In this document: in pieces, positions 3,898-56,080 of the stretch
Layout: each line of letters begins with the position of its first letter
Position numbering within the stretch: position 1 is the first letter of the stretch
DNA from: a virus
IMG/VR virus record: IMGVR_UViG_3300046798_000124
Span: 1-64,000 of that record
DNA: 64,000 bases
Reading direction: 5' to 3' (one strand)
Translations under genes and position numbers: made by a program
The notes under the pieces: generated by a model
What the model saw: the letters and a program-made list of their open reading frames with translations, nothing else
Told to the model about the DNA's origin: nothing
Database searches by the model: none

Positions 3898-4494
3898 TTA
3901 CGGCAAGGCGGGCACGACATCGCGGATCTTCGCCACGCGCGCCGGTGAGACCGAGGTATCGGGCAGCAGCGTCGCTTCGATCGGGACCATCGCCTTCGCG
4001 TCAACGGTGAAGTCGACGGCCATAGATCCCGACATCTGGCAGCGATAGCCGATGATCCGGAAGGCCTGGAGGTCCTGGGTCTGGATGTCGAAGCCAATGC
4101 TCACGAACACGTCGGTGATCAGCGAGCCGATGGCGAGGTCGTTGTGACCCTTCACCCCGGAGATCGGCGCCGTGGTCGTCAGGGTCCCCTGGCCCGAGGC
4201 CAGCTGGATCTTGGCCGGCGACATCTCGGCCAGGTTGAAGCTCATCGTGGCTGACCGAGCGGTCGCAGGCCGCATGACCGGGTCGAGCGACTGGTCCACC
4301 GAGACGTCGGCACGGGTGATGTCGGTGCCGAAGTGCAACCCGCCGTCGGTGTACCCCTGAAGGACCCATGGGGTCAGCCAGGGGTCGCCCCAGATCAGGG
4401 TATCGAGCGGCAGATCGTTGGTGGTGGCGTAGGCGGCGGTGTAGGCCCAGAAGTTTCTGGTTTGCAGAACTTGAAGGGCATCTGGTTCGGCCAT
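3898..4494 (-). CDS. major tail tube protein, copy 2
   Basis: W...GYTDGGL...VDQSLDPV...FNLAE tube motifs; GGAGG RBS. Confidence 0.8.
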   Translation of the reverse strand: MAEPDALQVLQTRNFWAYTAAYATTNDLPLDTLIWGDPWLTPWVLQGYTDGGLHFGTDITRADVSVDQSLDPVMRPATARSATMSFNLAEMSPAKIQLASGQGTLTTTAPISGVKGHNDLAIGSLITDVFVSIGFDIQTQDLQAFRIIGYRCQMSGSMAVDFTVDAKAMVPIEATLLPDTSVSPARVAKIRDVVPALP

Positions 4495-4503
4495 CAGGCC
4501 CTC

Positions 4504-5115
4504 CTATGGCAGTGCTGGTATGACATCGCGGATCTTCGCGACACGGGCCGGCGAGACCGACGTGTCAGGCAGCAGCGTCGCCTCGATCGGCACCATCGCC
4601 TTGGCGTCGACCGTGAAGTCGATGGCCATCGAGCCCGACATCTGACAGCGGTAGCCGATGATGCGGAACGGTTCGAGATCCTGCGTCTGGATGTCGAAGC
4701 CAATGCTCACGAACACGTCGGTGATCAAGGAGCCAATCGCCAGGTCGTCGTGACCTCGGGTGCCAACGATCGGGGCGAGACTGGTCAAGGTGCCCTGGCC
4801 TGAGGCCAGCTGGATCTTGGACGGCGACATCTCAGCCAGGTTGAACGACATGGTTGCTGACCGAGCGGTGGCTGGTCGCATCACCGGGTCGAGCGATTGA
4901 TCCACCGAGACGTCGGCGCGCGTAATATCGGTGCCGAAGTGGAGGCCACCGTCGGTGTACCCCTGAAGCACCCATGGCTTCGGCATCCCGGCGACCGTCC
5001 AGGCCGCGCCCCAGGCGATGGTGTCGGCCGGCAGATCGTTGGCGGTGTTGAAGTCGACGGTATAGGCCCAGAAGTTACGCGTCTGGAGTACTTGCAGGGC
5101 ATCCGGTTCAGCCAT
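4504..5115 (-). CDS. major tail tube protein, copy 1
   Basis: Same motifs; near-identical paralogue of 3898-4494; AGGAGG RBS. Confidence 0.8.
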   Translation of the reverse strand: MAEPDALQVLQTRNFWAYTVDFNTANDLPADTIAWGAAWTVAGMPKPWVLQGYTDGGLHFGTDITRADVSVDQSLDPVMRPATARSATMSFNLAEMSPSKIQLASGQGTLTSLAPIVGTRGHDDLAIGSLITDVFVSIGFDIQTQDLEPFRIIGYRCQMSGSMAIDFTVDAKAMVPIEATLLPDTSVSPARVAKIRDVIPALP

Positions 5116-15476: not shown

Positions 15477-17450
15477 CTAGATGACGTACTCGCGGCGACC
15501 GCCTCGACGGAGCGGACGGTCGGGATTCCCATAGGACCGGCGAATATCCGCGCCGGCGGCACGCTCGATGACCGCGCGCACCTGCGCGCGACGACTCGGA
15601 CCGGCCGGCTGTGCGGGTCGACTGCCGTACCCGGCCGCCGGCTGCACGAGATCGCTGCGGTTACCACCGACCGCCGCCGCGAACGTCGCCCCCGACGACG
15701 GCAGGGTCTCACGAGCGACCATGTCGTACACGCACGCATGCATCAAATGGTCTGGGCCGGAGTGCAGCCAGACCGAGACCGGCTGCCCTCGGGTGTCGGG
15801 CATCGTCGTCCGCGTCGGGCTCTGGAGATGGGCCTGGAACTCGGGGTCATTGACGACATCAGCCGGCGCCGGCTGGGCGATCTTGACGATCATGGCGCGG
15901 ACCCGGTCGAGCGCCATCGTCCGATTGATCGTGATCACGTCAACCTTGAGGCGTTCCAGCAGCCGGCGGTTCCGCAGCTTCTTCAGATCGAGGCCGTCCA
16001 TATGCCACAGCTGCCCTTTGAGGGCGCTCGGCCCGGGGTAGAAGGCGCGCAGCACGCGCCCTGGCCAGCGGGCGGCGAACTCCTTTGCCGAGTCAAGGTC
16101 CGGCTGGGCATCCACGATGCAGCGGCGAATCCTGAAGGTCCGCATCAAGCCATCGAGGTCGGCCCACTCATCGACACTGCCCACCGCCAGGATGTAGCGC
16201 CGACCGTCGGCGGCGTTGGTGGCCGAGGTAACCCAGTGCTTCTTGAAGCCGACGTCAACACCAAGGGTCGGGTCCGTCCATCGCCCCTTCGGCAGTTGCC
16301 CGTTCTCGAGCGGGGATGCCAGCTGGAGGATCTGCTCGAGGGTGACCTTGCTGCCGGCCACGGTGTACGGCAGGCCCAGGTCCGACTGGAAAAACTGCTG
16401 GCGCTCGAACGGGTCGGGGTTCACAGCAGCTGCGGCCAGTCGCAGCAAATCGACAGAAGGAAAGGCCATCGGCGGCACCCAGTACCCCCGCAGGCCCTGG
16501 ACCTCGGGCGCCTGCGAGACCCAGCGGCCCTCAGAGATCCGCTCCTCGTCGGTGACGAGGTCGCCGCACTCCGGGCAGTGCAGGGTGACACGGTGGCGCC
16601 GGATCTCCTCGGAGGGCCACTCGCCCCAGGCATCATGACCCTGGCCACGGACCCGCACGTCGCGGAGGAAGTCGTACAGCACCCAGGCGCCGCATCGGTG
16701 ACGCTGCTCGTAGCGGTGCTGATCGGAGTCGAGGAACATCCGGTGAATCCCAAAGCCGGGCACCGAGGGTGTCGAGATGTCGATCTCGCGGCGCACCATC
16801 GAGGCGTTCAGGCGGCGTCGCGCCAGCGCGACAGCCGAGCCGGCCATCTCATCGAACTCGTCCAGAATCAGGACGTCGGCCGGGAAGCTCTTGAGCGCCG
16901 AGGTCGACCAGCCGCCACGCAGATAGAGGAAGCTCTCGCGGACCTGTTTGAAGGTCACGGCATTGAAGGCGTCGTCGCCGCCGCCGAACAACTGCGAGAG
17001 ATAGGGACTTTCTCTCGCCAGTGAGGAGAGACGCTCCTTCGAGAAGTCCCCGAGGGCCTCTTTCTTGGGGAAAATATAGGCGACGTTCAGACCATCCTTG
17101 TCGTCGTCGGTCCAGACGGTCGCGCCCCGATCCAGGGCAAAGCCGGTGACGTTGATAGCGTACTCGGAGACGCCCCGCTGGGCCGGCTTGATGATCGCGA
17201 TGTGCTGGTGCGGGTCAGCGTAGATCTGTTTAAGCGGGCGGTGGCGCTCTAAGCTGAACGCTCTACCCTCCAGCTTACGGTGGAGGATCGCCCACTCCAG
17301 GGCATTGGTCGGGCCGGTGGCTGCGTGCTTCGCGAACTCGCGCACGACAGACGGCGCCTGCGCTCGGGCCGCCTCGGCCTGGCCCTGCAACTGCCGTGAG
17401 AGGGACGAGAGGAGTGAGCCTCGGAGACGTGACCCGGATGGACTGGACAT
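15477..17450 (-). CDS. terL: terminase large subunit (GpA-like)
   Basis: KPAQRGVSE Walker A variant, LILDEFD Walker B, ISTP, GVDVG nuclease, DHLMHA. Confidence 0.92.
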   Translation of the reverse strand: MSSPSGSRLRGSLLSSLSRQLQGQAEAARAQAPSVVREFAKHAATGPTNALEWAILHRKLEGRAFSLERHRPLKQIYADPHQHIAIIKPAQRGVSEYAINVTGFALDRGATVWTDDDKDGLNVAYIFPKKEALGDFSKERLSSLARESPYLSQLFGGGDDAFNAVTFKQVRESFLYLRGGWSTSALKSFPADVLILDEFDEMAGSAVALARRRLNASMVRREIDISTPSVPGFGIHRMFLDSDQHRYEQRHRCGAWVLYDFLRDVRVRGQGHDAWGEWPSEEIRRHRVTLHCPECGDLVTDEERISEGRWVSQAPEVQGLRGYWVPPMAFPSVDLLRLAAAAVNPDPFERQQFFQSDLGLPYTVAGSKVTLEQILQLASPLENGQLPKGRWTDPTLGVDVGFKKHWVTSATNAADGRRYILAVGSVDEWADLDGLMRTFRIRRCIVDAQPDLDSAKEFAARWPGRVLRAFYPGPSALKGQLWHMDGLDLKKLRNRRLLERLKVDVITINRTMALDRVRAMIVKIAQPAPADVVNDPEFQAHLQSPTRTTMPDTRGQPVSVWLHSGPDHLMHACVYDMVARETLPSSGATFAAAVGGNRSDLVQPAAGYGSRPAQPAGPSRRAQVRAVIERAAGADIRRSYGNPDRPLRRGGRREYVI

Positions 17451-24045: not shown

Positions 24046-24233
24046 CGTACACCTCCCCCCACGGCATGGTACACCGACCACTGGCCGGCCAAAGACGGCT
24101 GTTTTCGACGGGTTTCGGCCGTCTTACGGCGCATATGCGGCGGCGTATGACCAGAATCGGCGCGTTGGTGCGACGCGCGTGGGGATCTCTCGAAGGGGGC
24201 GCCGAGTGGCGAACATATTGATTCATAGCTCCG

Positions 24234-24698
24234 TCACTCGGGATCGTGGACCGGCGGCAGGGCCTCGTCGGCGGCCTGAAAGGCGTCGAGGGCAGCCGAG
24301 GTTGCTTCGGCGGCGGCGGTTAGCATGCGCCTCCGGGTCTCCTCCGGCGCCTGGTGGTGGTTGTAGTAGGTGGTCAGCAGGAGATCAGCGGAGGCGAGGA
24401 CGACGCGGGCGAGTGCCAGGCGCGTCCAGACGTAGCGCAGCTGCTGGCGCTGATGCTCGGCCTCAGCCGAGGCGTAGAGCGCCATCGCGGCCGCGGCCTG
24501 ACCTGGGGGGTAGCGCGGCGGCTCTTCGGGAGTACCGACGCCTGGGCGCACGTGCTCCTCCATCAGGGCCGCGGCATAGACCAGGTGGCTCACGATCTCC
24601 TGTGCCACGCGCGGGGACAGATCCTGGCCGGCGGTATGCACGACGTCGAAGCTGGTCCTGACGGCCTCCAGCACCACCGCCGCTACCTTCGGGTCCAT
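24234..24698 (-). CDS. helical hypothetical protein
   Basis: TGATG coupling. Confidence 0.55.
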   Translation of the reverse strand: MDPKVAAVVLEAVRTSFDVVHTAGQDLSPRVAQEIVSHLVYAAALMEEHVRPGVGTPEEPPRYPPGQAAAAMALYASAEAEHQRQQLRYVWTRLALARVVLASADLLLTTYYNHHQAPEETRRRMLTAAAEATSAALDAFQAADEALPPVHDPE

Positions 24699-25021
24699 CA
24701 GCGGGGCGCGTCCCACCGCGAGCGGGGCCTCGGGACACCAGGATTCCCGCGACTGGGATGCTGCGAGCTGTCAGCGCAGCGGGTACAGACCAGCGCCGAG
24801 CACGAGAGTCGCACCAGGAAGTCACCGGCCGATCCCAGACCGAGGTTGTTACACCAGAACCAGATCGAAACCCAGGCCTCACCGCCACGACGGACCTCAC
24901 TCACCTCACGGACGTAGTGAACCCGACCGGTGGTCCGGATCCGAAAGTAGGACGGTGGGTCCGGCAGGACGGTGACGCCCCGATCAGGCATAGCCCGCTC
25001 GTACTCGGGCAGGCGCACCAC
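24698..25021 (-). CDS. hypothetical protein (H...C...CxxC)
   Basis: Operon packing. Confidence 0.55.
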   Translation of the reverse strand: MVRLPEYERAMPDRGVTVLPDPPSYFRIRTTGRVHYVREVSEVRRGGEAWVSIWFWCNNLGLGSAGDFLVRLSCSALVCTRCADSSQHPSRGNPGVPRPRSRWDAPR

Positions 25022-26445: not shown

Positions 26446-26475
26446 TTGACACTGGGGTATACCGTGGTGTACCGT
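26446..26475 (+). promoter_or_regulatory. sigma70-type promoter with GGTATACC-NN-GGTGTACC operator
   Basis: TTGACA-18-TACCGT; same design at 29579 and 33955. Confidence 0.75.
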
Positions 26476-26505
26476 TAGGCCACCTTGACAACGGAGCGGC
26501 TAAGC

Positions 26506-27546: not shown

Positions 27547-27629
27547 GATCGATCCGGCCGATAGCCGGCGAGTAACTCGCCGGCCTTCGAGTGGACCTAT
27601 CCACTAGATCTCACAGCGGAGTAGACCCC

Positions 27630-28472
27630 ATGGCAACGTATAGCGCGCGTACCCTGAAGGCATCCCTAGGCTTTACCAGTCTCACGACGCCGGACGGCTA
27701 TAACCCGAAACTGAAGAAAGGCCGGGCACAAGGGTACTCTTCGCTCATTCTGCATTTGGCCCCGGCGAAGCTGTCCGGCTATGACGTGTGCCAGTACGCG
27801 TCGGACCGGTGCCGGGCCGTTTGCCTTAACACGGCCGGCCATGGCGGGATCATCCGTCGAGGCGAAACCACCAACGCTATCCAGACGGCCCGGATCGCCC
27901 GGACGCGTTGGCTGTTCGAAGATCGGCCGTCCTTTATGGCCCAGCTGGCCCATGAGATCACAACGCATATCCGGCGAGCCCGGGCGCATGGTATGACGCC
28001 GGCCGTGCGTTTGAACGGTACCAGTGATCTTCCATGGGAAAAGATCACTGGCCCGGATGGCCGGACCATCCTGGACAGCTTCGAGCGTGTCCAATTCTAC
28101 GATTACACGAAAAGCGCCGGCCGCGCGCTTGCCTTCGCGGCCGGGCTTATGCCTTCGAACTACCACCTAACCTTTAGTCGCTCCGAGTCCAATGCGCTGG
28201 ACGTGTCGGCCGTTCTCCGGGCCGGCGTCAACGTGGCAGCCGTGTTTGCCACGGCCGAACTACCGGCCGAGTGGAACGGCTCGCCGGTCATATCCGGCGA
28301 CCATGATGATCTGCGATTCCTGGATCGCCGGCCGGCCATCGTTGGGCTAAAGGCAAAGGGAAAGGCCCGGCGCGACATCTCCGGATTCGTCATCCGTCCG
28401 GAGGATGCCCGGCCGGCTCTTGTCCTGCCGATGTTCGCTCAGGGTATGGCGCGCCCATCTATCGCCATCTAG
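27630..28472 (+). CDS. GP88-family phage protein
   Basis: VCQYASDRCRAVCL, VRLNGTSD, QFYDYTK, NYHLTFS, DLRFLD, VGLKAKG. Confidence 0.85.
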   Translation: MATYSARTLKASLGFTSLTTPDGYNPKLKKGRAQGYSSLILHLAPAKLSGYDVCQYASDRCRAVCLNTAGHGGIIRRGETTNAIQTARIARTRWLFEDRPSFMAQLAHEITTHIRRARAHGMTPAVRLNGTSDLPWEKITGPDGRTILDSFERVQFYDYTKSAGRALAFAAGLMPSNYHLTFSRSESNALDVSAVLRAGVNVAAVFATAELPAEWNGSPVISGDHDDLRFLDRRPAIVGLKAKGKARRDISGFVIRPEDARPALVLPMFAQGMARPSIAI

Positions 28473-28481
28473 ACCCCACAG

Positions 28482-28510
28482 GCCCGGCCTATCACAGGCC
28501 GGGCTGTTTT
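28482..28510 (+). terminator. intrinsic terminator
   Basis: GCCCGGCCT-ATCAC-AGGCCGGGC followed by TGTTTT. Confidence 0.7.
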
Positions 28511-28527
28511 CGTTAAGGGAGTTGCTC

Positions 28528-28614
28528 ATGTCCAGACTCACAGCCGTTGTCGTGGTGTACGTGTCGACGTTGGCAAGCGTCACAGCTGTTGCCGTGGCCT
28601 ACCTGTCGCACTAG
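28528..28614 (+). CDS. 28-aa hydrophobic peptide
   Basis: AAGGGA RBS; MSRLTAVVVVYVSTLASVTAVAVAYLSH. Confidence 0.5.
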   Translation: MSRLTAVVVVYVSTLASVTAVAVAYLSH

Positions 28615-28621
28615 CCTAGCC

Positions 28622-28661
28622 AAACGAGCCCGGCCCATCATGGGCCGGGCTCGTTTGCTTT
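28622..28661 (+). terminator. strong hairpin terminator
   Basis: AAACGAGCCCGGCCCA-TCA-TGGGCCGGGCTCGTTT followed by GCTTT. Confidence 0.75.
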
Positions 28662-28664
28662 AAC

Positions 28665-29030
28665 ACGCGTCCTAGGCCGGCCTAGGACGCGTCCACAGCC
28701 CGGATCGGCCGATAGTCGACCTATCGGCCGTGTTTGCTTTAAGCGAGCCTACAGCGTTGCCACTGTCCACCGGTCCGATACCCCACAGCACCCGGCGAGC
28801 CGTCAACGGCTCGCCGGCGCGTTCTGACGCGTCCGGCGCGCCTAGGCCGGTGCTGTGGCCACCATTGGCCATAGCTACCCTGTGGACGCGTCCTAGGACG
28901 GCCGGTACCGTCGACGGTACCGGCGAGCCTATCCCGGCCGATGGTAGGCCCGGAACGCTCGCCGGCCGTAGCGTTACGTTACGCGTTACGATAGGCCCGG
29001 CCGACGGTACCCTGACTCGATTGTCCGTTG
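28665..29030. repeat. non-coding cluster of perfect palindromes and hairpins
   Basis: 28665-28692, 28706-28730, 28792-28817, 28901-28924. Confidence 0.8.
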
Positions 29031-29307
29031 TCCGGTGTCAGGACGTGCGCGGCCAGGCCGCCGTGTCAGCTGACCCCGGTGTCAGGTCTCGGATGTCGCG
29101 ACGACGACGGCCTGGCCTGGATGTCATAGGTCGGCCGACGCCGGCCGTCCGGAGCGGCCGGGAGCTCGGTCCGAAACGTCCTGACGCCGATGTCATGGCG
29201 ACAGCGACCAGCTCGAGCCGTCACGCCAGCTGGAGCATGACCTCGGCGCCTGGCCGCCCCTGTCAGGACCGCCCCGCCAGGTCGAGCTGGTCACGACCTC
29301 GACGACC

Positions 29308-29463
29308 TGACCGAAATGTCATGACCCCCGGGTCGAGACGAGGGGGTCGGGACGGGGGCGTCAGGACCATCCGAGCAGGGGGCGGGAGGGGCGATTCCCT
29401 GTTAAGCAAGAACGGCCAGGGAATTTTTGATTTTCAGTTTCAGTCCGGCCGTTTTTCGGATTC
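29308..29463 (+). repeat. dispersed intergenic element, copy 1
   Basis: TGAC-N6-GTCA ... CAAGAACGGCCAGGGAAT..GATTTTCAG..TTTTT. Confidence 0.75.
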
Positions 29464-29578: not shown

Positions 29579-29607
29579 TTGACAGACGGTATACCGTGGT
29601 GTACCAT
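29579..29607 (+). promoter_or_regulatory. sigma70-type promoter with GGTATACC-NN-GGTGTACC operator
   Basis: TTGACA-17-TACCAT. Confidence 0.8.
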
Positions 29608-29636
29608 TGCCGTACACCCCAGAGGAGACACCCCTG

Positions 29637-32349: not shown

Positions 32350-32427
32350 CCCGTCGGCCTGGTCGCCGCCGCCAGGCCGCCGACGCCACGACCGCGGCCT
32401 CGAGAGCTCCAGCTCGTGACCCAGAGA

Positions 32428-32580
32428 CCCTGACCCAGATGTCAGGTCGAGGGCGTCGGGATGGGAGGGTCGGGACCGAGGGGGCACGACCGCCAGGTCA
32501 GGTGCCATGGGCGGTGGCCGGAGGACAAGAACCGCCAGGGAATATTCGATTTTCACTTCGACGCCGACCGATTTTCAGGC
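32428..32580 (+). repeat. dispersed intergenic element, copy 2
   Basis: CCCTGACCCAGATGTCAGGTCGAGGGCGTCGGGA identical to copy 3; CAAGAACCGCCAGGGAAT core. Confidence 0.8.
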
Positions 32581-32620
32581 TGGGCGACTTCACCGCCCCC
32601 GCCACCGAGAGGAGACGCTG

Positions 32621-32845
32621 ATGCTGTACGCCACCTTCCGCCGAGGATCCCACGATGAGACCACCCGGGTCCACCGGATCCCGTCCGTGACTGGTGAGCC
32701 GGGCTACTCCGACTACCGCCCCGCGCTCTGCGGCGCCACGGCGGCCCACCGCCTGTGGGCACCGGTCGAGACGCTGCCGCCGGCCGACGCCACCCCGCCC
32801 CGCGCCTATCTCTGCCCGCGCTGCTTCCCGGAGGGAGCCTCGTGA
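32621..32845 (+). CDS. small Zn-binding protein
   Basis: GAGGAG RBS; H..ALCG..CPRC. Confidence 0.6.
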   Translation: MLYATFRRGSHDETTRVHRIPSVTGEPGYSDYRPALCGATAAHRLWAPVETLPPADATPPRAYLCPRCFPEGAS

Positions 32846-33329: not shown

Positions 33330-33365
33330 CCCGCCCGACCAGGCCGGGAGCTCCTGTCGCTCCGA

Positions 33366-33520
33366 CCCTGACCCAGATGTCAGGTCGAGGGCGTCGGGAC
33401 CGCGGCGACCAGGCCCCCAGGTCAGGCCCAGGCCGGCGCCGGCGCCGGCCTCCAGAACACAAGAACCGCCAGGGAATCCGGGATTTTCAGTTCGGGTCCG
33501 TCCGATTTTTGGACCGCCCC
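33366..33520 (+). repeat. dispersed intergenic element, copy 3
   Basis: As copy 2. Confidence 0.8.
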
Positions 33521-33535
33521 AGAAAGGAGGAATCC

Positions 33536-33954: not shown

Positions 33955-33984
33955 TTGACAGACTGGTATACCACGGTGTACCAT
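33955..33984 (+). promoter_or_regulatory. sigma70-type promoter with GGTATACC-NN-GGTGTACC operator
   Basis: TTGACA-18-TACCAT. Confidence 0.8.
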
Positions 33985-35009: not shown

Positions 35010-35027
35010 GGTATACTGAGGTATACC
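35010..35027 (+). promoter_or_regulatory. operator copy GGTATACT-GA-GGTATACC overlapping -10 TATACT
   Basis: Same tandem 8-bp palindrome spacing as the three promoters. Confidence 0.6.
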
Positions 35028-35092
35028 TCTGTGATGGTGGGTGGGGATCTGCACCCCACCCACCGGCCGGCCACCCGAAGGAGTCGACTTCA

Positions 35093-35596
35093 ATGCCCGA
35101 CCGTGAGCAGTGTATCCCACGTGAGCTTCTCTGGAGCGATGACATGTCGACACCCGCACCGCGCCCTGGCCCGATCCAGTTCCGTTCTGTCGAGCTTGAG
35201 CCCCATCTTGAAGCGCGCTCTGATGGCAGTCTGGGTCAGGTCGCCGTCCGCGACCTTGGTCGTTACTACGAAGCCCTGAATCGAGCCCGTCCCACCTTCA
35301 GTCGTGATGAGGCACTGGCGATCATCGAGGTCTGCAACGGCACCCTCTGGGAGCCCTGGAGCATCCCCCTGCTCTGGGCGAGCGTCTCTGACGCGAAGGG
35401 CCTGGGCGAGCGCTGGTCCATCGACCAGGCCGCGCTGGTTGACCGCCTCCGCGCCCTCACCTACATCGAGATCCTCGCCATCATCGACTCAGCCGAGCGC
35501 GTCTGGCGTCAGGGCACCACCACCGGGCCGGCGCTCATCCAGACTCTTGAGGCGTCTGGCCTCATCGCTCCCACCCCCCAGGAGACCCGACCATGA
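35093..35596 (+). CDS. putative ribbon-helix-helix-type regulator
   Basis: PIQFRS...SLGQVAVRDLGRYYEAL N-terminus; operator directly upstream. Confidence 0.5.
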   Translation: MPDREQCIPRELLWSDDMSTPAPRPGPIQFRSVELEPHLEARSDGSLGQVAVRDLGRYYEALNRARPTFSRDEALAIIEVCNGTLWEPWSIPLLWASVSDAKGLGERWSIDQAALVDRLRALTYIEILAIIDSAERVWRQGTTTGPALIQTLEASGLIAPTPQETRP

Positions 35597-35973
35597 CCAC
35601 GAAGTACTTCTTCCACAGCCCGAGAGGTTTCTCGAATGAGGCAGACGTGTACGCCGTGCCGGCCGAGATCGCAGAGCAGTGGCTCGAAACGTTCGAGGCC
35701 CGTCTCGGGTCGAGCGCCGACTACGCCGCGACCGCCGTCGAGCCGATCACGCGGAGGGTGGCCGAGACACTGATCCGTCAGCCCGGCGTCGGCCTCCAGA
35801 TCGACGGCGACGACTACAACTACGAGGACTGCACCACGAAGCAGCTGACCCCCGCCTCGCTGAGGTCGGCCCGCCGTGCGGCGACCGCGATGATCGCAGA
35901 GATCAAGCGGGAGATGGACTTCGAGGCCGAGATGGCCGACGCCTATCCCGAGTTCGCGGTGCAACCGCGATGA
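35593..35973 (+). CDS. hypothetical protein
   Basis: AGGAG RBS; SPRGFSNE motif. Confidence 0.6.
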   Translation: MTTKYFFHSPRGFSNEADVYAVPAEIAEQWLETFEARLGSSADYAATAVEPITRRVAETLIRQPGVGLQIDGDDYNYEDCTTKQLTPASLRSARRAATAMIAEIKREMDFEAEMADAYPEFAVQPR

Positions 35974-36476
35974 CGATCCTGACGATCAGTCCCTACCAGA
36001 AGCCACCCTACACCCACGCCACGAACACCGGACGGCTGTTCCGCAGTCTGGGGGATGCCGAGGCGTACGTCGCGGGACGGGACGCCTACTGGGCGGTGTT
36101 TGCCTCCATCCCCACGGATCAGGTCGGCAACTGGCAGGTACCGTTCCCGATGTCCAGGCAGCAGTACGAGGACTGGGCTGAGCGGGTCGGCGTCGACGCC
36201 TGGGCCGACACCGTGATCCGCCAGAACGCCTACGCCTGCCAGTACTACGAACCCCAGACATTGACGCGTGAGACGGGCCTCCAGACGCTCAGGCTGCGAC
36301 TCGCCAACCGCCGGCTGGCCCAGCTTGAATGGGATGACCGGCAGCGCCCCGTGGTCTTGCCGATGGAGGTGCTCCAGACCTGTGCGGCGTGTGGCACCAC
36401 GCACCCTCCGCGCATGCTGCTGACCTCGCCAGTCGGAGTCGTATGCCCGGATTGTTATGACGAGGTGGAAGGATGA
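35970..36476 (+). CDS. hypothetical protein with C-terminal Zn finger
   Basis: ATGA coupling; CAACG..CPDCYD. Confidence 0.6.
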   Translation: MTILTISPYQKPPYTHATNTGRLFRSLGDAEAYVAGRDAYWAVFASIPTDQVGNWQVPFPMSRQQYEDWAERVGVDAWADTVIRQNAYACQYYEPQTLTRETGLQTLRLRLANRRLAQLEWDDRQRPVVLPMEVLQTCAACGTTHPPRMLLTSPVGVVCPDCYDEVEG

Positions 36477-36700
36477 CCCGCACCATCAATCGCTGCGAGT
36501 ACGTGACCCGACGCGCCGGCCAGTCCGTCACCGGCCAGTCCATCCCCCTGGACGGCCACGGCGATATGACGCAGATCTGCGGTCGGTTCGGCAGCCCTGT
36601 ACCGCACACGTTCCACGTCAAGCGGCCGGGCACCACGAGCGTCTACGACCCACGGGAAGGCACGGTCATTCGGTGTGCTGAGCACGCCGACACTGCGTGA
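36473..36700 (+). CDS. small hypothetical protein
   Basis: ATGA coupling. Confidence 0.55.
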   Translation: MTRTINRCEYVTRRAGQSVTGQSIPLDGHGDMTQICGRFGSPVPHTFHVKRPGTTSVYDPREGTVIRCAEHADTA

Positions 36701-36743
36701 GCTACTCAGCCTTCAATCCGCTACTTTCGAGAGGAGCACCTCA

Positions 36744-37310
36744 ATGACCGTACGAGATTGGCGAGCTGCGGAGTCGATCGTTACCCTGCCGATGGTCCCG
36801 ATGCAGTTCGCCAACTTACTCCCGCATCAAGAGGGCCTGTACATCGCGGTGATCGGTCACTGCTATGTGGGGTACGTGGGCATGTCCTGGACCTCGATCC
36901 TTTGGCGTTGGTATCAGCACCGTGCGATGCGTGGTACGGCCGGGAAGGCGGCTGCCCTGATCGAACTGGCGCATCGTTTCAGGCTCGATGGCATACAGAC
37001 ACCGGTCCTGATCCACTATCTGGTCGATGCGTGGGAGCACAAGAAGGATCTCCTCGCTGATGAGCGGAGCATCCGGGACATCTGGAATCCGCCGCTCAAC
37101 GCGCCGCGCTATGGCAAGGATGGGTCGCCGTGGTTGATCCGAGAGCATTGGGTGGCGCCACCAGAAGAAGGGGTCTACCGACCCAACATCGGATGGGACT
37201 ATGTGACAGCTGAGCATGGTCCAACATACTGGACACCGCCCGAGACAGCGTTGACGAGCACGGTTGGGATGTCCCTCATGCCTCCTGGCACGACAGCTTC
37301 GAGTGTCTGA
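36744..37310 (+). CDS. GIY-YIG-like endonuclease
   Basis: GLY...YVG.S...RWYQH...E...NPPLN. Confidence 0.65.
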   Translation: MTVRDWRAAESIVTLPMVPMQFANLLPHQEGLYIAVIGHCYVGYVGMSWTSILWRWYQHRAMRGTAGKAAALIELAHRFRLDGIQTPVLIHYLVDAWEHKKDLLADERSIRDIWNPPLNAPRYGKDGSPWLIREHWVAPPEEGVYRPNIGWDYVTAEHGPTYWTPPETALTSTVGMSLMPPGTTASSV

Positions 37311-37346
37311 CCTCGTCAGCCTTATGACGGCCACTCAGGAGAAACG

Positions 37347-37523
37347 ATGCCAGGGACAGGTGGCGGCGACCCGCTTCCGAGGCGGATTCGTTGCGGCTGG
37401 TGTAACGACTACGAGACGCCAGTCATGCGGTCGCACGTGGCTGCCCTGGCTCGATTGGAGAGTCACGTCAAGGAGTCGCATCCAGTCAGATACGAAGCGG
37501 CGATCAAACGGTCTGCCGAGTGA
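37347..37523 (+). CDS. 58-aa C2H2-type Zn-finger protein
   Basis: Manual translation: CGWC...LESHVKESH; AGGAG RBS. Confidence 0.6.
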   Translation: MPGTGGGDPLPRRIRCGWCNDYETPVMRSHVAALARLESHVKESHPVRYEAAIKRSAE

Positions 37524-37563
37524 CGACGATAAGCACGATTTCGTCGGGCGTACAGGAGGGACC

Positions 37564-37827
37564 GTGCCAAGAACTACGGCCGATGTCGAGGCTGAGTTAC
37601 TGCAAGACTACTACGGCGATCTACCCTGGCTCGACCTTCCGCCCACGTCGGGCTGGTACTGGTTCCGGGTCGTGCCATCGGTAGCGATCCACGGTCCAAC
37701 CCGCGTACGCCTAATCGGAGGGCGCCTCGTCGGTCAGGTCCACGACGGCGGGAACGGCGAGAAGCCGGTGGAACACTTTCAGCGGCAGTGGGCTGGACCG
37801 CTGGCCCGGCCCGTCCCCGCTGAGTGA
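37564..37827 (+). CDS. hypothetical protein (P..SGWYW...WAGPL motif)
   Basis: AGGAGG RBS. Confidence 0.6.
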   Translation: MPRTTADVEAELLQDYYGDLPWLDLPPTSGWYWFRVVPSVAIHGPTRVRLIGGRLVGQVHDGGNGEKPVEHFQRQWAGPLARPVPAE

Positions 37828-37872
37828 CTGACCTATCGAGTTTTTCGTTCGACACACTCCGGAGGACTGCTC

Positions 37873-37992
37873 ATGTTCATCGCTGGAAACACCCACCCGC
37901 TGGTGCTCTTGATCGCCTACCTCGTCTTCGCGGTGCTCTGGATTCACCGGTGGCGGCAGGCCAGGCGCGACGGGCGCTGGCTGCTGATCTGA
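37873..37992 (+). CDS. 39-aa membrane peptide
   Basis: GGAGG RBS; MFIAGNTHPLVLLIAYLVFAVLWIHRWRQARR. Confidence 0.55.
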   Translation: MFIAGNTHPLVLLIAYLVFAVLWIHRWRQARRDGRWLLI

Positions 37993-38039
37993 GTGGCCGA
38001 TCTCTCTACTCTGTGCATACCTACGCCCTGGAGGGGATC

Positions 38040-38240
38040 ATGACGACCCGAGGCCGGCTCTACCACCGCGCGTTCCGCTGCGGCGACTGCTGCGCGCTGC
38101 AAGTCGGTGAGAGCGACCTGTGCGCCGGAGCGTACGAGGGGATCTGTCACAAGGTCTGGTTCGAGACCTACGGGACGAAGCCGTGGGAGGATGACCGATC
38201 CTGGGAGTTGACCCAGGATCTCAGCAACACGCCATTCTGA
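38040..38240 (+). CDS. small Cys-rich protein
   Basis: GGAGG RBS. Confidence 0.55.
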   Translation: MTTRGRLYHRAFRCGDCCALQVGESDLCAGAYEGICHKVWFETYGTKPWEDDRSWELTQDLSNTPF

Positions 38241-38286
38241 GTGACCGACCTACGCAGATTTTCGTCTGGCCTGCACTGGAGGCGTC

Positions 38287-38511
38287 TTGGAGAGGATCAG
38301 AGACCAACTGTTCGGTAGCATGCGGCTCGCTGTCGAAGCCGGACACACCTCTGGTCGAGCAGTCGCCCAGAACGGCGACGAGTGGGTCTGTGTCTCCTGG
38401 TCGCCGTTGCCGTCCGGTCAGACGGCCGTCTCGATAGCCATCGGCATTTCCGAATACCGTGCGCGGATGCTCGCTGACCAGCGTCTTGCGGCTGAGGTTG
38501 CGAAGCACTGA
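38287..38511 (+). CDS. small hypothetical protein
   Basis: GGAGG RBS with TTG start. Confidence 0.5.
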   Translation: MERIRDQLFGSMRLAVEAGHTSGRAVAQNGDEWVCVSWSPLPSGQTAVSIAIGISEYRARMLADQRLAAEVAKH

Positions 38512-38553
38512 GAGCCGACCTATGCAGCTTTTTCTTCCCCGCAAGGAGGTCAC

Positions 38554-38706
38554 ATGAGGCCAGACGCACCGTTTTGCTCCCGCTGTGAACATGACGAGCG
38601 GCAACATCGCGTCTGGGCTGAGGGCTGCACCGCCATCATCACGATTGACGACAACGACGACGATGTCTACTGCGACTGCGAGCGGCTGTTTCTCGCAGTC
38701 GAGTGA
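38554..38706 (+). CDS. 50-aa Cys-rich protein
   Basis: AAGGAGGT RBS; CSRCEH...C...CDC. Confidence 0.6.
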   Translation: MRPDAPFCSRCEHDERQHRVWAEGCTAIITIDDNDDDVYCDCERLFLAVE

Positions 38707-38774
38707 CGGAGATATCTAGCCTTTTTGGCCCCACCCGGCGACTTCACCGCCGGCCACCACCGAGAGGAGACCCC

Positions 38775-39083
38775 ATGGACCCTGAGCTTCACGCCCGACT
38801 CACCCGGAGCGGCATCGACCCGGATCTGGCCCGTCTCTGCCGCCGCTGTCGGCACCCACGCCGCATCACCGGCTACGAGCAGGGGCGGCTCTCCTGGGTC
38901 TGCCAGACCCCATCCTGCCTCGCCGTCGGCTCGCCCCACCTCGTCTCCAGCATCACGATCCAGGCGACGTGCGCCCCCTGTGGCGACCCCGGTGAGCACC
39001 GCCTGGCCGAACTGTCGAACGGCGAGATGGTCGCCACCTGCCACGGCTGTCACACCGTGACGATCATGTCCCCCCTACCCTGA
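38775..39083 (+). CDS. multi-Zn-ribbon protein
   Basis: GAGGAG RBS; four Cys pairs. Confidence 0.6.
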   Translation: MDPELHARLTRSGIDPDLARLCRRCRHPRRITGYEQGRLSWVCQTPSCLAVGSPHLVSSITIQATCAPCGDPGEHRLAELSNGEMVATCHGCHTVTIMSPLP

Positions 39084-39228
39084 CATCTGTGTCAGGTCGG
39101 ATGGGTCGAGGCGTGGGGGTCGGGACGCCGAGGGCAGGGACCAGGCGGCGGCGATCCCCACGTCACCGACCACAAGGACAGCCAGGGAATCCGGGATTTT
39201 CGGAATGCCCTGACCGAATTTTCCGCGC
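39078..39228 (+). repeat. dispersed intergenic element, copy 4
   Basis: TGACATCTGTGTCAGG...CAAGGACAGCCAGGGAATCCGGGATTTTC. Confidence 0.75.
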
Positions 39229-39259
39229 ACCGCATCACCACCCGAAAGGAGCTCAGGCT

Positions 39260-39766
39260 GTGGTGTCCATCGCCAGAGACCCTGACGAATCGGCCGACGC
39301 GTTCCTGCTGCGCTACCTCACCACCGTCACCGAAGAGATGGTCGTGACCCAGCTGCCCACGCTGTCATACGCCTGCTACGAGCATCTTGTCCTGACGCTG
39401 GGGCGGCCCTACACGGCCCAGCCGCTGTCACCCCTCGCCACCTACGGCGAGCCGAAGAAGTGCTACGCCAACACCCTCCAGTTGGTCCGTGAACTGCCCA
39501 CGATCCAGTACGTCGAAGGCTTCGCCTACCACGCCGGAACCGGTATCGCCTACCTCCACGCCTGGGGCGCGGACACCCTCGGCCTGGTCTGGGACCGGAC
39601 CTGGGAGGACACGGCCGGGTGTGCGTACTACGGGATCCCCTTCCCTCGAGCCGACCTCGAGCGGTTCGACGCCCTCGGTCCTGACTACCTCGGGATCATC
39701 GAGAGTCACTACCTGCTCGGCTCACCCCTGATGAAGACCGGCCGACTCTTCCCACCCGGTGCGTGA
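39260..39766 (+). CDS. papain/transglutaminase-like fold protein
   Basis: CYAN...YVEG...HAW...D.TW, a Cys-His-Asp pattern. Confidence 0.6.
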   Translation: MVSIARDPDESADAFLLRYLTTVTEEMVVTQLPTLSYACYEHLVLTLGRPYTAQPLSPLATYGEPKKCYANTLQLVRELPTIQYVEGFAYHAGTGIAYLHAWGADTLGLVWDRTWEDTAGCAYYGIPFPRADLERFDALGPDYLGIIESHYLLGSPLMKTGRLFPPGA

Positions 39767-40180: not shown

Positions 40181-40287
40181 CACCGAGGTGTTGAGACTCT
40201 TCATCAAACCCGTTGAACTCCGGTATCCTGGTACGGGGCACCTGGGCGCGAGGAGTACCCACTGCCCCAAGAACGAGCAGGGAGCGC

Positions 40288-41004
40288 GTGGTGCAGGCGT
40301 TGAACGAACGACACGGTGTGACCATGATCGACACAGCTGACCTGTCCGAGCGGGAGCGGGCACTGCTGACGCCGGCGGTGATTGCCCGCTGGACGGACGG
40401 GCTGGCCCCCGACGACGAGATCGACCCGACCGAGATCGTCGGCCTGGAGAAGCGGCGCCTCCAGGCGCTCCAGACGCTCCGGAAGGGCGCAGACCTCTCG
40501 GACCAGGAGTGGAAGCTGCTGCGCTTCCTCCAGCGCAACGAGGGGCGGACCTGTACCTACTTGCAGATCGCGCGGCACCTCTGGCAGACGCCATCCCACC
40601 GCGTCACCGCCCAGAGCCTGATCAGTATCAATGCCAGCCGACAGGGCCTCGGCGGGGTCGTCACCACCATCCACGTCCTGGTTCACGGCATCCGCTACAA
40701 GCTCGAGATCGACCCATTACGCCCACAGCACCTGTGCAATATCCGAGGCGTTGGGTATCGCTTTTACTCGCTGCCGCCATCGCTCAACGATGGCGAGAAC
40801 TACGAGCGGAGGGCCACCGAGTCCGCGGTCCTGCGCGAGCAGCTGTACCAGCAGCTGGGCCTGCTGGAGGGTGACTACGTGGCCGTCGAAGACCGCACCG
40901 GCACGCCCTACGAGACCCGTATTCGGCCCGGGCCAGAGCACCCGGATCACCCTGTCGCCATCGACGCCGACGTGATGACCGCTGCGTCCGAGCGACGGCC
41001 ATGA
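40288..41004 (+). CDS. OmpR/KdpE-type winged-helix regulator lacking a receiver domain
   Basis: LSDQEWKLLRFL...IRYKLEIDPLRPQHLCNIRGVGYRF. Confidence 0.8.
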   Translation: MVQALNERHGVTMIDTADLSERERALLTPAVIARWTDGLAPDDEIDPTEIVGLEKRRLQALQTLRKGADLSDQEWKLLRFLQRNEGRTCTYLQIARHLWQTPSHRVTAQSLISINASRQGLGGVVTTIHVLVHGIRYKLEIDPLRPQHLCNIRGVGYRFYSLPPSLNDGENYERRATESAVLREQLYQQLGLLEGDYVAVEDRTGTPYETRIRPGPEHPDHPVAIDADVMTAASERRP

Positions 41005-41587: not shown

Positions 41588-41624
41588 ACGGTACTTGACA
41601 TGATCATGTCAAGTACCGTACACT
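41588..41624 (+). promoter_or_regulatory. promoter embedded in a 32-bp perfect palindrome
   Basis: ACGGTACTTGACATGA|TCATGTCAAGTACCGT; TTGACA-18-TACACT. Confidence 0.75.
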
Positions 41625-41699
41625 CTGGTGGACAGGAAAATGGCCGTGCAAGACTTCACCCTTGCACGGCCGATGCGCCACCCGAGAGGAGACCCCGAC

Positions 41700-42834: not shown

Positions 42835-43494
42835 TCAGGGAGCGTGAAACGGCGGGGGAGCGCGCATGATGTAGACGATCGTCCCGGCCACCTTGACCTG
42901 GTCGGGGCGTAGCGTGCTCCCATCCGATAAGCCGTAACTGTGGTGTCCGCCACGGATGAACCGCCAGGCCGTCAACGTCGCCGCGCCGTGGAGGAGCAGG
43001 ACCAACTGCTCGCTCGTGGCGCGCGCGTCGGGGTCGAACAGGACTTGATCGCCGGGGAGGACGTGCGGCGTCATCCCGCCACCGTCGACGGTGGCCACGT
43101 AGACGCGAGCGCGTCCATCAAGCTGGGAGGCCGCGACGGTCAGGGTCCGTCCGGTCGGCACCAGCACGCCATCCGGGCCGAGCGTGACCTCCGGCGCGAG
43201 TGTCACACCTTCGATACCTAGCAGCGCCGTATCCCGCAGGCCCGGCATCCGGGTCTGCTTCTGGACACTGCCGATCAGGGTTGATTCCGGCACCTCCAGG
43301 GCCGTGCAGATGTCGCGAATGGTCGAGATACGTGGGGACTGGATCCGACCCCGCGTCAGGAGTGAGAGCTGGGAGACCGACACACCGGAGCGTGCCGACA
43401 GCCGGTGCAGTGATACCCCCCTTCTGCGCAGGAGCGTCCGCAGGCGCTGACCTATCGTCGTCTCGTCGTTCGGGGTGTGCGCGAGTGCCTGCAC
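42835..43494 (-). CDS. CI-like repressor (XRE HTH + degenerate S24 domain)
   Basis: IGQRLRTL..LSARSGVSVSQLSLL; GGGMTPHVLPGDQVLFDP. Confidence 0.8.
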   Translation of the reverse strand: MQALAHTPNDETTIGQRLRTLLRRRGVSLHRLSARSGVSVSQLSLLTRGRIQSPRISTIRDICTALEVPESTLIGSVQKQTRMPGLRDTALLGIEGVTLAPEVTLGPDGVLVPTGRTLTVAASQLDGRARVYVATVDGGGMTPHVLPGDQVLFDPDARATSEQLVLLLHGAATLTAWRFIRGGHHSYGLSDGSTLRPDQVKVAGTIVYIMRAPPPFHAP

Positions 43495-47841: not shown

Positions 47842-48636
47842 ATGATCACCGAAGAGCGCGCCAACGAGATCCTCGACGACACTGAGGACGAGGACGAGAC
47901 CCTGGTGGTCACGCCACTCTCGACCTACGAGAAGCTGGCGCTGCCGTTCGACCTGGCCGACCACGCCCGCGTCAACAAGGGGGGCATGGATCAGACGTTC
48001 GCGCCGTGGACGGTGTACGTCGAGCGGCTGAACAGCGTCCTCGGCGTCGAGAACTGGTCGTACCGGATCCCACGCGAGGGGTTCACCGAGACCGAGTGCT
48101 GGGTGCTCGCGGAGATCACCGCCTTCATCGACGGCGCCGAGATCGTGCGCCAGCAGTACGGCTCGGAGCCGATCGTCAAGGGTCGGGACGCCAAGCCGAC
48201 CACCGACCTGTTGAAGTCAACGGCGTCGGACGCGCTCAAGAAAGCCGCGTCTCTGCTCGGCGTCGGCCTCTACCTCTCGATCAAGGAGGAGCGCCTCGCC
48301 ATCGAGCAGGCGATGCGTGAGGCGGTCATGGAGGCTGCCGGGCAGATGCGCGGCGCTGGAGGCCCCCAGAGGGCGCCACAGGGTCAGGATCGGCCTGCCC
48401 CCGCCCCGACCCCGATGCGGCCACCACAGGCCGCTCAGCCGGCGCCGGCGCCGCTCGCAACTGGCGAGCGCGCCAGCCTGGAGAACAAGTACGAGGCGCT
48501 TCGCGAACAGGCTCGCCACACGGGCTTCCAGGCATCCTGGGCCACCGGTGGTCCCGAGCAGTTCAACGACATCCAACTGCCCAAGTACATCAACCTGCTG
48601 GAGCAGCACGTCGCTCGTCAGCGAGTGTCCGCGTGA
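47842..48636 (+). CDS. Rad52/Sak-family single-strand annealing protein
   Basis: ERLNSVLGVENWS...KSTASDALKKAASLLGVGLYL. Confidence 0.85.
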   Translation: MITEERANEILDDTEDEDETLVVTPLSTYEKLALPFDLADHARVNKGGMDQTFAPWTVYVERLNSVLGVENWSYRIPREGFTETECWVLAEITAFIDGAEIVRQQYGSEPIVKGRDAKPTTDLLKSTASDALKKAASLLGVGLYLSIKEERLAIEQAMREAVMEAAGQMRGAGGPQRAPQGQDRPAPAPTPMRPPQAAQPAPAPLATGERASLENKYEALREQARHTGFQASWATGGPEQFNDIQLPKYINLLEQHVARQRVSA

Positions 48637-52241: not shown

Positions 52242-52367
52242 GGAGATCGACGAGGCCCGAGTGACAGGTTGGGTCGGTCAGGGGTACCGACGACGGTACG
52301 CGGCGCATCACAAGCAGCGCCAGGGGTCCGGGAATTTTCAGCCCGGCCCCGGTGAAATTTCAGATTC
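52225..52367 (+). repeat. dispersed intergenic element, copy 5
   Basis: TGACCGATATGTCATG...CAAGCAGCGCCAGGGGTCCGGGAATTTTCAG. Confidence 0.7.
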
Positions 52368-52378
52368 GGAGGACCACC

Positions 52379-55237: not shown

Positions 55238-55622
55238 CGGCATCGAGATCCACCCCAGTGCCATCGATGGACGGACCCCCGACTACCAGGAGTTCTTGCG
55301 CACCTGGGGATCCCACTGCGGCGCGCCGAAGAGCGTCTTCCAGGGTCACCTCAACGCCCTGATCCACGCCGAGCAGGCCGAGATGGGCCGGTACGTGATC
55401 ACGCAAACCCAGGCGATGGTCGACCGCGCGGCGCCACGCCACCGCGCACTCGCTCGATTGCTCACCGACATCAGCGACCACCTGGAGGGTCACGACTGTT
55501 ACGTCGAGCACTGCCTCCAGACCATGGCACCGGACGCCACGATCTGTCCGGCCCGCGCCAGGCTGGTCGACCGCAGCCGCCGCGCCATCACCGTGCTCGG
55601 GCTCGGGGGCGAGGCTGCGTGA
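55224..55622 (+). CDS. hypothetical protein
   Basis: GGAG RBS. Confidence 0.55.
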   Translation: MVDVDGIEIHPSAIDGRTPDYQEFLRTWGSHCGAPKSVFQGHLNALIHAEQAEMGRYVITQTQAMVDRAAPRHRALARLLTDISDHLEGHDCYVEHCLQTMAPDATICPARARLVDRSRRAITVLGLGGEAA

Positions 55623-56080
55623 TGGCCGCCAACCCGCTCGACATCTCCCGTGACGCCCCACGCGACCTGGTCCGCCTGCCGGCCGAGATCAGCGCCCTGC
55701 CATCGGCCTTCGGGGCGCTGATGAAGACGTACCGCGTCCGCTGCGGCCTTTCCCAGAACAAGCTGGCGCGATCCGCCGGCTGCGATCCCGCCTATGTCAA
55801 CCGCCTCGAGCGCGCCCCGTCCACCACCACCTCACTCCCGAGTCGGCGGTTCGTGCTGGCCTTCTGGGAGGTCTTCATGGAGGCGACCACACACACCACC
55901 CGCCCGATCACCACCGATGACCGCGAGCGCCTGTTGGTTGCCGCCGGCCTCTGTCCTGAGACCATCCTGGCAGCCGGCGGCTGGGACGCCTTCGTCGGAC
56001 GGATTCGCCGTCAGGTCGTCATCGGCTTCGTGTCTACCATCGAGCAGCTTGACGAAAGCTTGAGTCCCGCCGACCTCTAG
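55619..56080 (+). CDS. XRE-family HTH protein
   Basis: FGALMKTYR...LSQNKLARSAGCDPAYVNRLE. Confidence 0.8.
   Translation: MMAANPLDISRDAPRDLVRLPAEISALPSAFGALMKTYRVRCGLSQNKLARSAGCDPAYVNRLERAPSTTTSLPSRRFVLAFWEVFMEATTHTTRPITTDDRERLLVAAGLCPETILAAGGWDAFVGRIRRQVVIGFVSTIEQLDESLSPADL

Follow-up and report, generated by a model that had tools for sequence, protein, structure and literature searches.

A co-oriented intergenic repeat at consecutive junctions of small, unrelated genes in an uncultured, apparently actinophage-like soil virus

Many actinobacteriophage clusters carry repeated sequences between their genes, such as stoperators, SAS/ESAS and the EC, EI, EG and O motifs, and a function is known only for the stoperators. 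Here, we describe a repeat that resembles them in an uncultured virus: a linker of ~45-50 nucleotides (nt) that joins small genes at seven consecutive junctions (37301-38774), in a segment that we refer to as the tract. It is found in a window of 64,000 nt, i.e. bases 1-64000 of the 74,167-bp IMG/VR record IMGVR_UViG_3300046798_000124, which is estimated to be 86% complete. At about even confidence, we place the linkers, as a new member, in a class of intergenic repeats found in many actinobacteriophages 20-30 nt before the start codons of small non-structural genes; such repeats are asymmetric, co-oriented and specific to a cluster, and their function is still unknown. The linker itself is probably a gene-expression signal, that is, a sequence-specific regulatory site.

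Several phage systems with repeated intergenic elements have been described. The 18-nt Cluster EC and 30-nt Cluster EI motifs of Microbacterium phages are asymmetric, occur in 5-12 copies (12 in EC) and in one orientation, and occupy short gaps among small genes, where each precedes the ribosome-binding site and ends 21-30 nt from the start codon; their function is unknown (PMC7302621). The SAS/ESAS of Cluster K (and EF) are found in a region of small non-structural genes, again in one orientation and linked to gene starts, and in some cases the repeat contains the stop codon of the upstream gene. In SAS, a 13-mer located 3-7 nt from the start, the ribosome-binding site is part of the repeat; ESAS consists of two imperfect 17-nt inverted repeats, and the function of both was unresolved as of 2025 (PMC3203893, PMC12699233, PMC7302621). 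The stoperators of Cluster A mycobacteriophages are asymmetric 13-14-nt sites in short intergenic spaces, oriented with transcription; more than 20 of them are spread over both genome arms, one being the operator of the early promoter, and they are bound by a monomeric two-domain repressor (PMC9283540). Finally, the PeSLs of T4-type phages are repeated intergenic cassettes that precede ORFans in a variable region. They have been proposed, and partly shown, to mediate modular shuffling, and both shuffling and mini-circles have been demonstrated (PMC2839356, PMC4122927).

In the virus described here, the seven tract copies of the linker all point in the same direction, and an eighth significant copy lies on the minus strand of the other arm (24201-24241). 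All eight share the orientation of the local genes. To rank the tract copies, a position weight matrix (PWM) was built from six of them and the seventh was scored among the 148,286 positions of the 74-kb record; in this leave-one-out test, each copy ranked between 3 and 15. An unbiased repeat search over 33-42 kb returned the 46-nt linker as its top family (family D1). Likewise, an nhmmer profile of the seven copies recovered all seven (E 5e-8 to 3e-4), as expected because these copies trained the profile, and exactly one further significant site, at 24241-24201 (-) (E 4.4e-4), which was outside the training set. The sequence, the PWM scan of the full contig, nhmmer and the repeat search thus confirm the seven copies, with their coordinates, that a preliminary description of this DNA had listed. 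Two weaker copies proposed there (~36695 and 27589) are recognisable in an alignment made by eye, but reach significance with neither PWM nor nhmmer.

The homology between the spacers runs from the stop codon of the upstream gene to the ribosome-binding site of the next. The consensus reads GAGTGACYGACCTA, two or three variable bases, AG, one base, four or five T, about 12 poorly conserved bases and GGAG(G), the ribosome-binding site, which stands 6-9 nt before an ATG, GTG or TTG start. Its first 14 nt form a constrained, asymmetric and TGA-prone 5' box. Mismatches per site amount to 0.18 in these 14 columns vs 0.37 beyond them (permutation P=0.00035), and columns G1, A2, G3, C7, T13 and A18 are invariant. 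A18/G19 and the T-run that follows are conserved more loosely than the box, and most copies are only 60-75% identical in pairwise comparison. Homologous over the whole spacer and non-uniformly constrained, the repeats are more than a product of chance.

The upstream stop codon always falls inside the box, in three registers (Table 1). Copy 3 has a TGA in all three frames, and the other copies mainly retain only the TGA in use. Being TGA-prone across registers, the box ends any incoming reading frame. From the motif start to the next start codon, copies 1-7 measure 46, 46, 51, 49, 48, 44 and 74 nt; counted from where the 25-nt motif ends, the intervals are 21, 21, 26, 24, 23 and 20 nt in copies 1-6, 49 nt in copy 7 and ~170 nt in copy 8, whose motif lies ~195 nt from the next start. 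The ribosome-binding site follows the motif start by 37-40 nt in six copies. The gaps between the open reading frames (ORFs) of the tract are 36-47 nt long (68 nt for the last), whereas neighbouring genes outside it mostly overlap by 1 or 4 nt. In these respects the preliminary description was accurate: it had noted the overlap of stop and motif at each junction, starts 44-51 nt after the motif start (74 nt for the last) behind GGAG(G), and the tight coupling of the neighbouring genes. The 3' half of linker 7 (38727-38774; GGCGACTTCACCGCC...CCACCGAGAGGAGAC) is a different leader, common to 32575-32620 and 41665-41699, where it precedes the genes starting at 32621 and 41700; a second spacer type is therefore joined to the motif at this junction.

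The linkers have no RNA fold in common. RNAalifold predicts no consensus pairs and no covariation, single-sequence folds of the seven tract copies are no better than those of shuffled sequences (z -1.4 to +1.4 over all fold tests, -1.4 to +1.0 in one of them), and a search of the spacers against Rfam gave no match. Copy 8 folds into the only real hairpin among the copies (-11.2 kcal/mol, z -2.6). A 5-nt GAGTG/CACTC complementarity occurs in some copies; it never varies and thus provides no evidence for or against a fold. A scan for sigma-70-type promoters detected none within the spacers and sites at 33955, 41595 and, inside ORF A, at 37203. In the same way, a terminator scan detected none within the spacers and hairpin-plus-T terminators at 28480-28740. 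Further candidates for the identity of the motif were tried and rejected: an ECF-type promoter (GTGAC-N17-CGT) is present in only 3 of the 7 copies, a host LexA box was dropped, and for T7-like promoters no such polymerase gene was recognised (the control was uninformative), the longest ORF (1,672 amino acids, aa) encoding a tape-measure protein with an M23 peptidase domain.

By description, the linkers fit the EC/EI kind of repeat. They comprise eight co-oriented copies with a 14-nt core in a 25-nt motif, they lie in short gaps, and six of them end 20-26 nt short of a start codon, with the ribosome-binding site in between, which is the geometry of the EC motif. Their sequence is distinct, however, and instead of being scattered along the genome they follow one another, junction after junction, within 1.5 kb; they also overlap the stop codon of the preceding gene and are homologous over the whole spacer. 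Moreover, EC/EI phages encode a sigma factor, whereas none was found in this record. The defining features of the other systems are missing. With SAS/ESAS, the linkers share the single orientation at small-gene starts, but their conserved block lies 20-26 nt from the start, the last 15 nt before the starts are conserved only as GGAG(G), and instead of a 17-nt inverted-repeat pair there is only the 5-nt complementarity mentioned above. Stoperators often touch stop or start codons, and their asymmetry and orientation with transcription recur in the 14-nt box of all eight copies. Yet there are only eight linkers in 74 kb, of which the tract accounts for seven, and no promoter has one; the sigma-70-type promoters of this virus carry other, GGTATACC-type repeats. 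The Cluster A repressor combines a helix-turn-helix (HTH) with a stoperator domain, and the repressor that can be recognised here is of the CI-like type and has an S24 peptidase domain. As in PeSLs, each spacer opens with the stop of the upstream gene and closes with the ribosome-binding site and start of the next, but PeSLs are defined by a consensus sigma-70 promoter and a stable stem-loop terminator, and the linkers have neither. Integrons, too, have a repeated junction element between small unrelated genes; the linkers lack their integrase, attC fold and promoterless-cassette logic.

How might such a site work? Since the linker is unstructured, asymmetric, bound to one orientation and constrained by position, its reader should, by elimination, be a sequence-recognising protein. 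We propose that the 5' box is recognised on the DNA, by sequence and not by fold, by a phage or host protein, for which the winged-helix and HTH proteins of the phage would be candidates. By binding there, it would control the transcription that enters or crosses each small gene, the site being either a stoperator-like block or a factor-dependent promoter. The TGA-prone box at the same time supplies the stop of the upstream gene in whichever frame arrives, and the rest of the spacer would give each gene its own translation start.

A number of points weigh against this proposal. Both the recognition of the box and its effect on transcription are inferred from sequence. No copy overlaps a recognisable promoter, and a TANNNT hexamer can be read in only 2 of the 7 spacers. 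No sigma factor was identified when the entire 74-kb record was searched in six frames alongside positive controls. The copies are clustered, seven within 1.5 kb, unlike the dispersed stoperators or the EC motif. In copy 8, the overlap with the stop is kept and the distance to a start is not; this would also suit a role at the 3' end of the preceding gene. Part of the conservation of the 5' box is accounted for by stop-codon use, although this leaves the invariant positions outside the stop codons unexplained. Lastly, there are only eight copies, all related, so that selection is difficult to tell apart from shared ancestry.

The genes between the linkers are unrelated ORFans. The tract contains eight rightward ORFs of 188, 58, 87, 39, 66, 74, 50 and 102 codons. 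As the preliminary description had remarked, it is less GC-rich than its surroundings (0.62-0.64 vs ~0.67 nearby); at third codon positions, the GC content (GC3) is 0.68-0.74 in five of the eight ORFs vs 0.83-0.92 in flanking genes, with a range of 0.68-0.90 across the tract and the coding pattern by codon position kept. Pfam and PHROG searches assigned none of the tract proteins to a family. Comparison of these proteins with each other revealed no paralogy, and paralogous tract genes are thereby ruled out. Among the protein labels given earlier, that of a GIY-YIG-like nuclease for ORF A is weakly supported; the others have no database support. Among 1.84 billion representative proteins, only two homologues of ORF A were found. 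Its GLY..YVG..R..E..N motifs are invariant across the three homologous proteins, and Pfam GIY-YIG matched two of the three, with a best E of 1.4e-3 that is below cut-off. A PDB profile search with ORF A yielded no match, and its AlphaFold model (pLDDT 31) was unusable for a fold search. Two further candidates were rejected: 3 of the 7 neighbouring pairs are in frame without a stop between them, about the chance expectation for stop read-through fusions, and translational bypass is ruled out by the ribosome-binding site and start that every gene possesses.

The distribution of homologues provides crude but consistent evidence that the small tract genes may travel independently, as in other mosaic phage regions. 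For instance, one homologue of ORF A resides in an unrelated 73-kb IMG/VR phage with 59% GC (IMGVR_UViG_3300005937_000006), which has three genes in common with our record and no copy of the motif. There (L090 9195-10558), it adjoins a homologue of gp47171-47536, whereas the two genes are 10 kb apart here; the nuclease-like gene has therefore moved. ORF C has eight homologue clusters (53-75% identity), on contigs distinct from those of the homologues of ORF A, ORF H or the downstream gp39260. One homologue of ORF H and one of gp39260 are each found on a 4,601-nt contig; otherwise, the homologues of ORF C, ORF H and gp39260 lie on contigs of different lengths. Relatives of the tract as a whole were not detected: single-protein and alignment-based locus searches of IMG/VR, JGI metagenomes and GTDB genomes returned no tract-bearing relative, and motif scans gave no match in IMG/VR, 84 in metagenomes and 34 in genomes, all but one of them single in their locus. 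Re-scoring with the PWM, which covered the metagenome loci only, left none with a real motif cluster, and most of these loci are AT-rich.

As a by-product, and whichever reader applies, the 25-45 nt of homology would make the spacers natural crossover points for general recombination. Crossovers at shared spacers would account for genes of unrelated sequence and differing composition, and junction homology, an annealing protein and a frame-ending box would together allow the tract to gain and lose genes. It is plausible that genes are shuffled through ordinary homologous recombination at the linkers, with indirect evidence from unrelated genes of uneven composition, independently distributed homologues and the Erf/Rad52-like protein that the phage encodes.

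That recombination should come first, with the spacers as PeSL-like mobile boundary cassettes whose main role is to swap, gain or lose genes by homologous recombination, strikes us as quite unlikely. The Erf/Rad52-like protein, or breaks made by the GIY-YIG nuclease heading the array, could assist in such a process, and much of the layout agrees with it: unrelated, compositionally mixed ORFans lie between homologous spacers, homologues of the tract genes are distributed independently, an annealing protein is encoded, the leader of copy 7 is also found at two other genes, and stop, ribosome-binding site and start are placed as in PeSLs (PMC2839356). However, 25-45 nt of homology, mostly 60-75% identical, are a poor recombination substrate, and the position-specific constraint suggests a function in which the sequence is read rather than mere homology. 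Very improbable, in our estimate, is a scheme in which the GIY-YIG-like nuclease recognises or cuts the spacer and, together with the Erf/Rad52-like protein, brings about break-induced gene exchange during co-infection, in other words an integrase-free cassette shuffling. An integron-like array for site-specific capture, with the spacers as attC-like sites, is scarcely credible. The preliminary description had considered such a system, and only the appearance of small unrelated genes with a repeated junction speaks for it. No tyrosine or serine recombinase was found in the window or beyond it: six-frame searches of the 74-kb record gave no match to PF00589 at E<=0.1 (control positive in 14 of 14 genomes) and none to PF00239 (positive control run). 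The spacers, only ~45 nt long, do not fold into the imperfect palindrome of attC, as their shuffled-like energies and the lack of a consensus fold show and as had been stated before, and each gene has its own ribosome-binding site. The earlier remark that there is no recombinase accordingly stands for site-specific enzymes and fails for the Erf/Rad52-like annealing protein, the only recombination protein recognised.

The main rival, which we consider unlikely, places the signal in the RNA. The box would then be a single-stranded protein-binding, processing or translation-enhancing site in a polycistronic mRNA that uncouples the small genes and sets the output of each. Strict co-orientation with transcription in 8 of 8 copies, the tight interval to the ribosome-binding site in six, the strong ribosome-binding site of every downstream gene and the U-rich, weakly structured and hence accessible spacers would all suit such a site. 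It is disfavoured by the missing consensus structure, covariation and Rfam family, by the copy at 24241 (-), far from the next start, and by the annotated genes, among which no RNA-binding protein or RNase was recognised. Repeated sites for RNA processing or translation control had been suggested in the preliminary description as the alternative to gene capture or shuffling; of these two readings, control of expression is the better supported, while a structured RNA site is unsupported. It seems improbable that the spacers are merely neutral relics, left over from serial duplication or unequal crossing-over and functional only as carriers of ribosome-binding sites. Homology that spans the whole spacer, including its poorly conserved leader, and copies that sit side by side are what such an origin would leave behind. 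Nevertheless, conservation is strongly uneven, in six copies the spacer length varies by a few nt only and indels are nearly absent, the distant copy in the other arm retains the box, and the flanking genes bear no trace of shared ancestry.

Table 1. Positions of the linkers, the tract genes and other features of the record discussed in the text
Feature	Position	Strand	Remarks
Linker copy 1	37301-37346	(+)	Stop at motif positions 8-10; PWM rank 8; nhmmer E 1.9e-6
Linker copy 2	37518-37563	(+)	Stop at positions 4-6; PWM rank 12; nhmmer E 5.4e-5
Linker copy 3	37822-37872	(+)	Stop at positions 4-6; nearest to consensus; PWM rank 3; nhmmer E 5e-8; reference copy of D1
Linker copy 4	37991-38039	(+)	Stop at positions -1 to 2; PWM rank 9; nhmmer E 7e-5; D1
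Linker copy 5	38239-38286	(+)	Stop at positions -1 to 2; PWM rank 5; nhmmer E 2.5e-7; D1
Linker copy 6	38510-38553	(+)	Stop at positions -1 to 2; one-base deletion in 5' box; PWM rank 15; nhmmer E 2.6e-4
Linker copy 7	38701-38774	(+)	Stop at positions 4-6; 74 nt; PWM rank 3; nhmmer E 1.5e-6
Linker copy 8	24201-24241	(-)	Stop at positions 4-6; overlaps stop (GAG TGA) of gene 24234-24716 (-); quasi-palindromic
Possible degenerate copy upstream of ORF A	36696-36743	(+)	TCAGCCTT common with copy 1 by alignment; not significant
Possible short copy upstream of GP88-family gene	27589-27629	(+)	Aligns by eye; not significant
ORF A, weak GIY-YIG-like nuclease	36744-37310	(+)	188 aa; GC3 0.70; first gene of the tract
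ORF B, Cys/His-containing ORFan	37347-37523	(+)	58 aa; strong ribosome-binding site; GC3 0.68; no Pfam/PHROG match
ORF C, Trp-rich	37564-37827	(+)	87 aa
ORF D, hydrophobic peptide	37873-37992	(+)	39 aa; GC3 0.90; GGAGG ribosome-binding site
ORF E, Cys-rich ORFan	38040-38240	(+)	66 aa; GC3 0.85; no family match
ORF F	38287-38511	(+)	74 aa; TTG start behind GGAGG; GC3 0.71; no family match
ORF G, Cys/His-rich	38554-38706	(+)	50 aa; GC3 0.73; only a faint PHROG HNH match, E 0.007
ORF H, zinc-ribbon-like	38775-39083	(+)	102 aa; weak zinc-ribbon Pfam matches; last before bipartite element
Larger bipartite intergenic element	39084-39260	(+)	One of five copies (alignment of five); bounds tract downstream
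Sigma-70-type promoter (TTGACA, 18 nt, TACCAT)	33955-33984	(+)	Nearest upstream of tract; promoter scan
OmpR-type winged helix (gp40213)	40213-41004		Candidate DNA-binding protein, Pfam scan
CI-like repressor, HTH + S24 peptidase domain	42835-43494	(-)	Candidate DNA-binding protein, Pfam scan
HTH protein (HTH_31; gp55622)	55622-56080		Candidate DNA-binding protein, Pfam scan
Erf/Rad52-like single-strand annealing protein	47842-48636	(+)	Pfam Rad52_Rad22 E 0.0027; PHROG Erf-like E 1.5e-4
Terminase	15477-17450		Leftward head/packaging block

The source of the record is best explained as an uncultured, temperate, actinophage-like soil virus. The GC content of the window is ~66%; searches in near and distant modes gave no DNA match to a cultured phage, and the large terminase is only ~25% identical to that of any such phage. 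One leftward block, from ~25.7 kb, holds the head and packaging genes (terminase, portal, protease, capsid) and another, from 74 to 57 kb, the tail and lysis genes, while the rightward block between them (~26-56 kb) comprises small early genes, replication genes and regulators, among them a DnaC-like loader and methyltransferases. Within this layout, the linker tract is best understood as a variable 'ORFan' segment at the far end of the early plus-strand transcription unit, and the promoter at 33955-33984 is the likely source of transcription through it. Several soil and rhizosphere metagenomes contain the same phage, and there are no RNA datasets among the listed runs that contain it. Over 33.3-41.1 kb, the contigs of four runs are short and near-identical, with no joints listed, and thus uninformative on rearrangement. 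At 35027-35989, the contigs of one other soil run differ at 4-5% of sites, vs 0-1.4% across the pieces between 37.6 and 41.1 kb, which looks like a local mosaic between strains.

Other repeats and repeated genes are found in the record. Sigma-70-type promoters (TTGACA, 17-18 nt, TACNNT) are located at 26447-26482, 29588-29620, 33955-33984, ~35015-35035 and 41590-41625 and are combined, in an operator-like manner, with GGTATACC-type or TTGACATGATCATGTCAA palindromes, which are probably operators of the CI-like repressor. A further palindrome, TGAC-N2-10-GTCA, occurs 26 times in the whole record vs 13 +/- 4 expected (e.g. at 37308, 39081, 39764 and 41208), and several of its copies contain the TGA stop of a rightward gene. 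The bipartite element is present in five co-oriented copies (29200-29460, 32350-32620, 33330-33535, 39084-39260 and 52242-52378) and consists of a CCTGACC-N4-ATGTCAGG palindrome, a G-rich stretch, CAAGAACNGCCAGGGAAT, two GATTTTC tracts and a ribosome-binding site. Segments of the early block are delimited by these elements, one of which marks the end of the linker tract; a scan for the core of the element returned a single, unrelated match. The gene at 27630-28472 belongs to Pfam GP88 (E 5e-43) and lies within a lower-GC, compositionally distinct segment at 26-28 kb with its own promoter and terminators. In the virion module, two adjacent genes of ~200 codons each (3898-4494 and 4504-5115 (-)) are 86% identical tandem paralogues. 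An 863-aa protein (L125 7285-9873) is made of many repeats of a ~100-aa unit, which recurs in the adjoining 254-aa protein (L125 9879-10640); the two genes lie at 70281-73639 (-) of the record.

The linkers do not reveal a new mechanism of gene capture. Rather, they are an unusually clean case of the repeats found in many actinobacteriophages: one spacer recurs at seven consecutive ORFan junctions, and its 5' box serves as the stop in three frames, which links a probable regulatory repeat to how new genes can slot into a phage genome. Such an arrangement is thus also found in uncultured soil phages, and the linkers form a compact collection of sites suited to binding and reporter assays.

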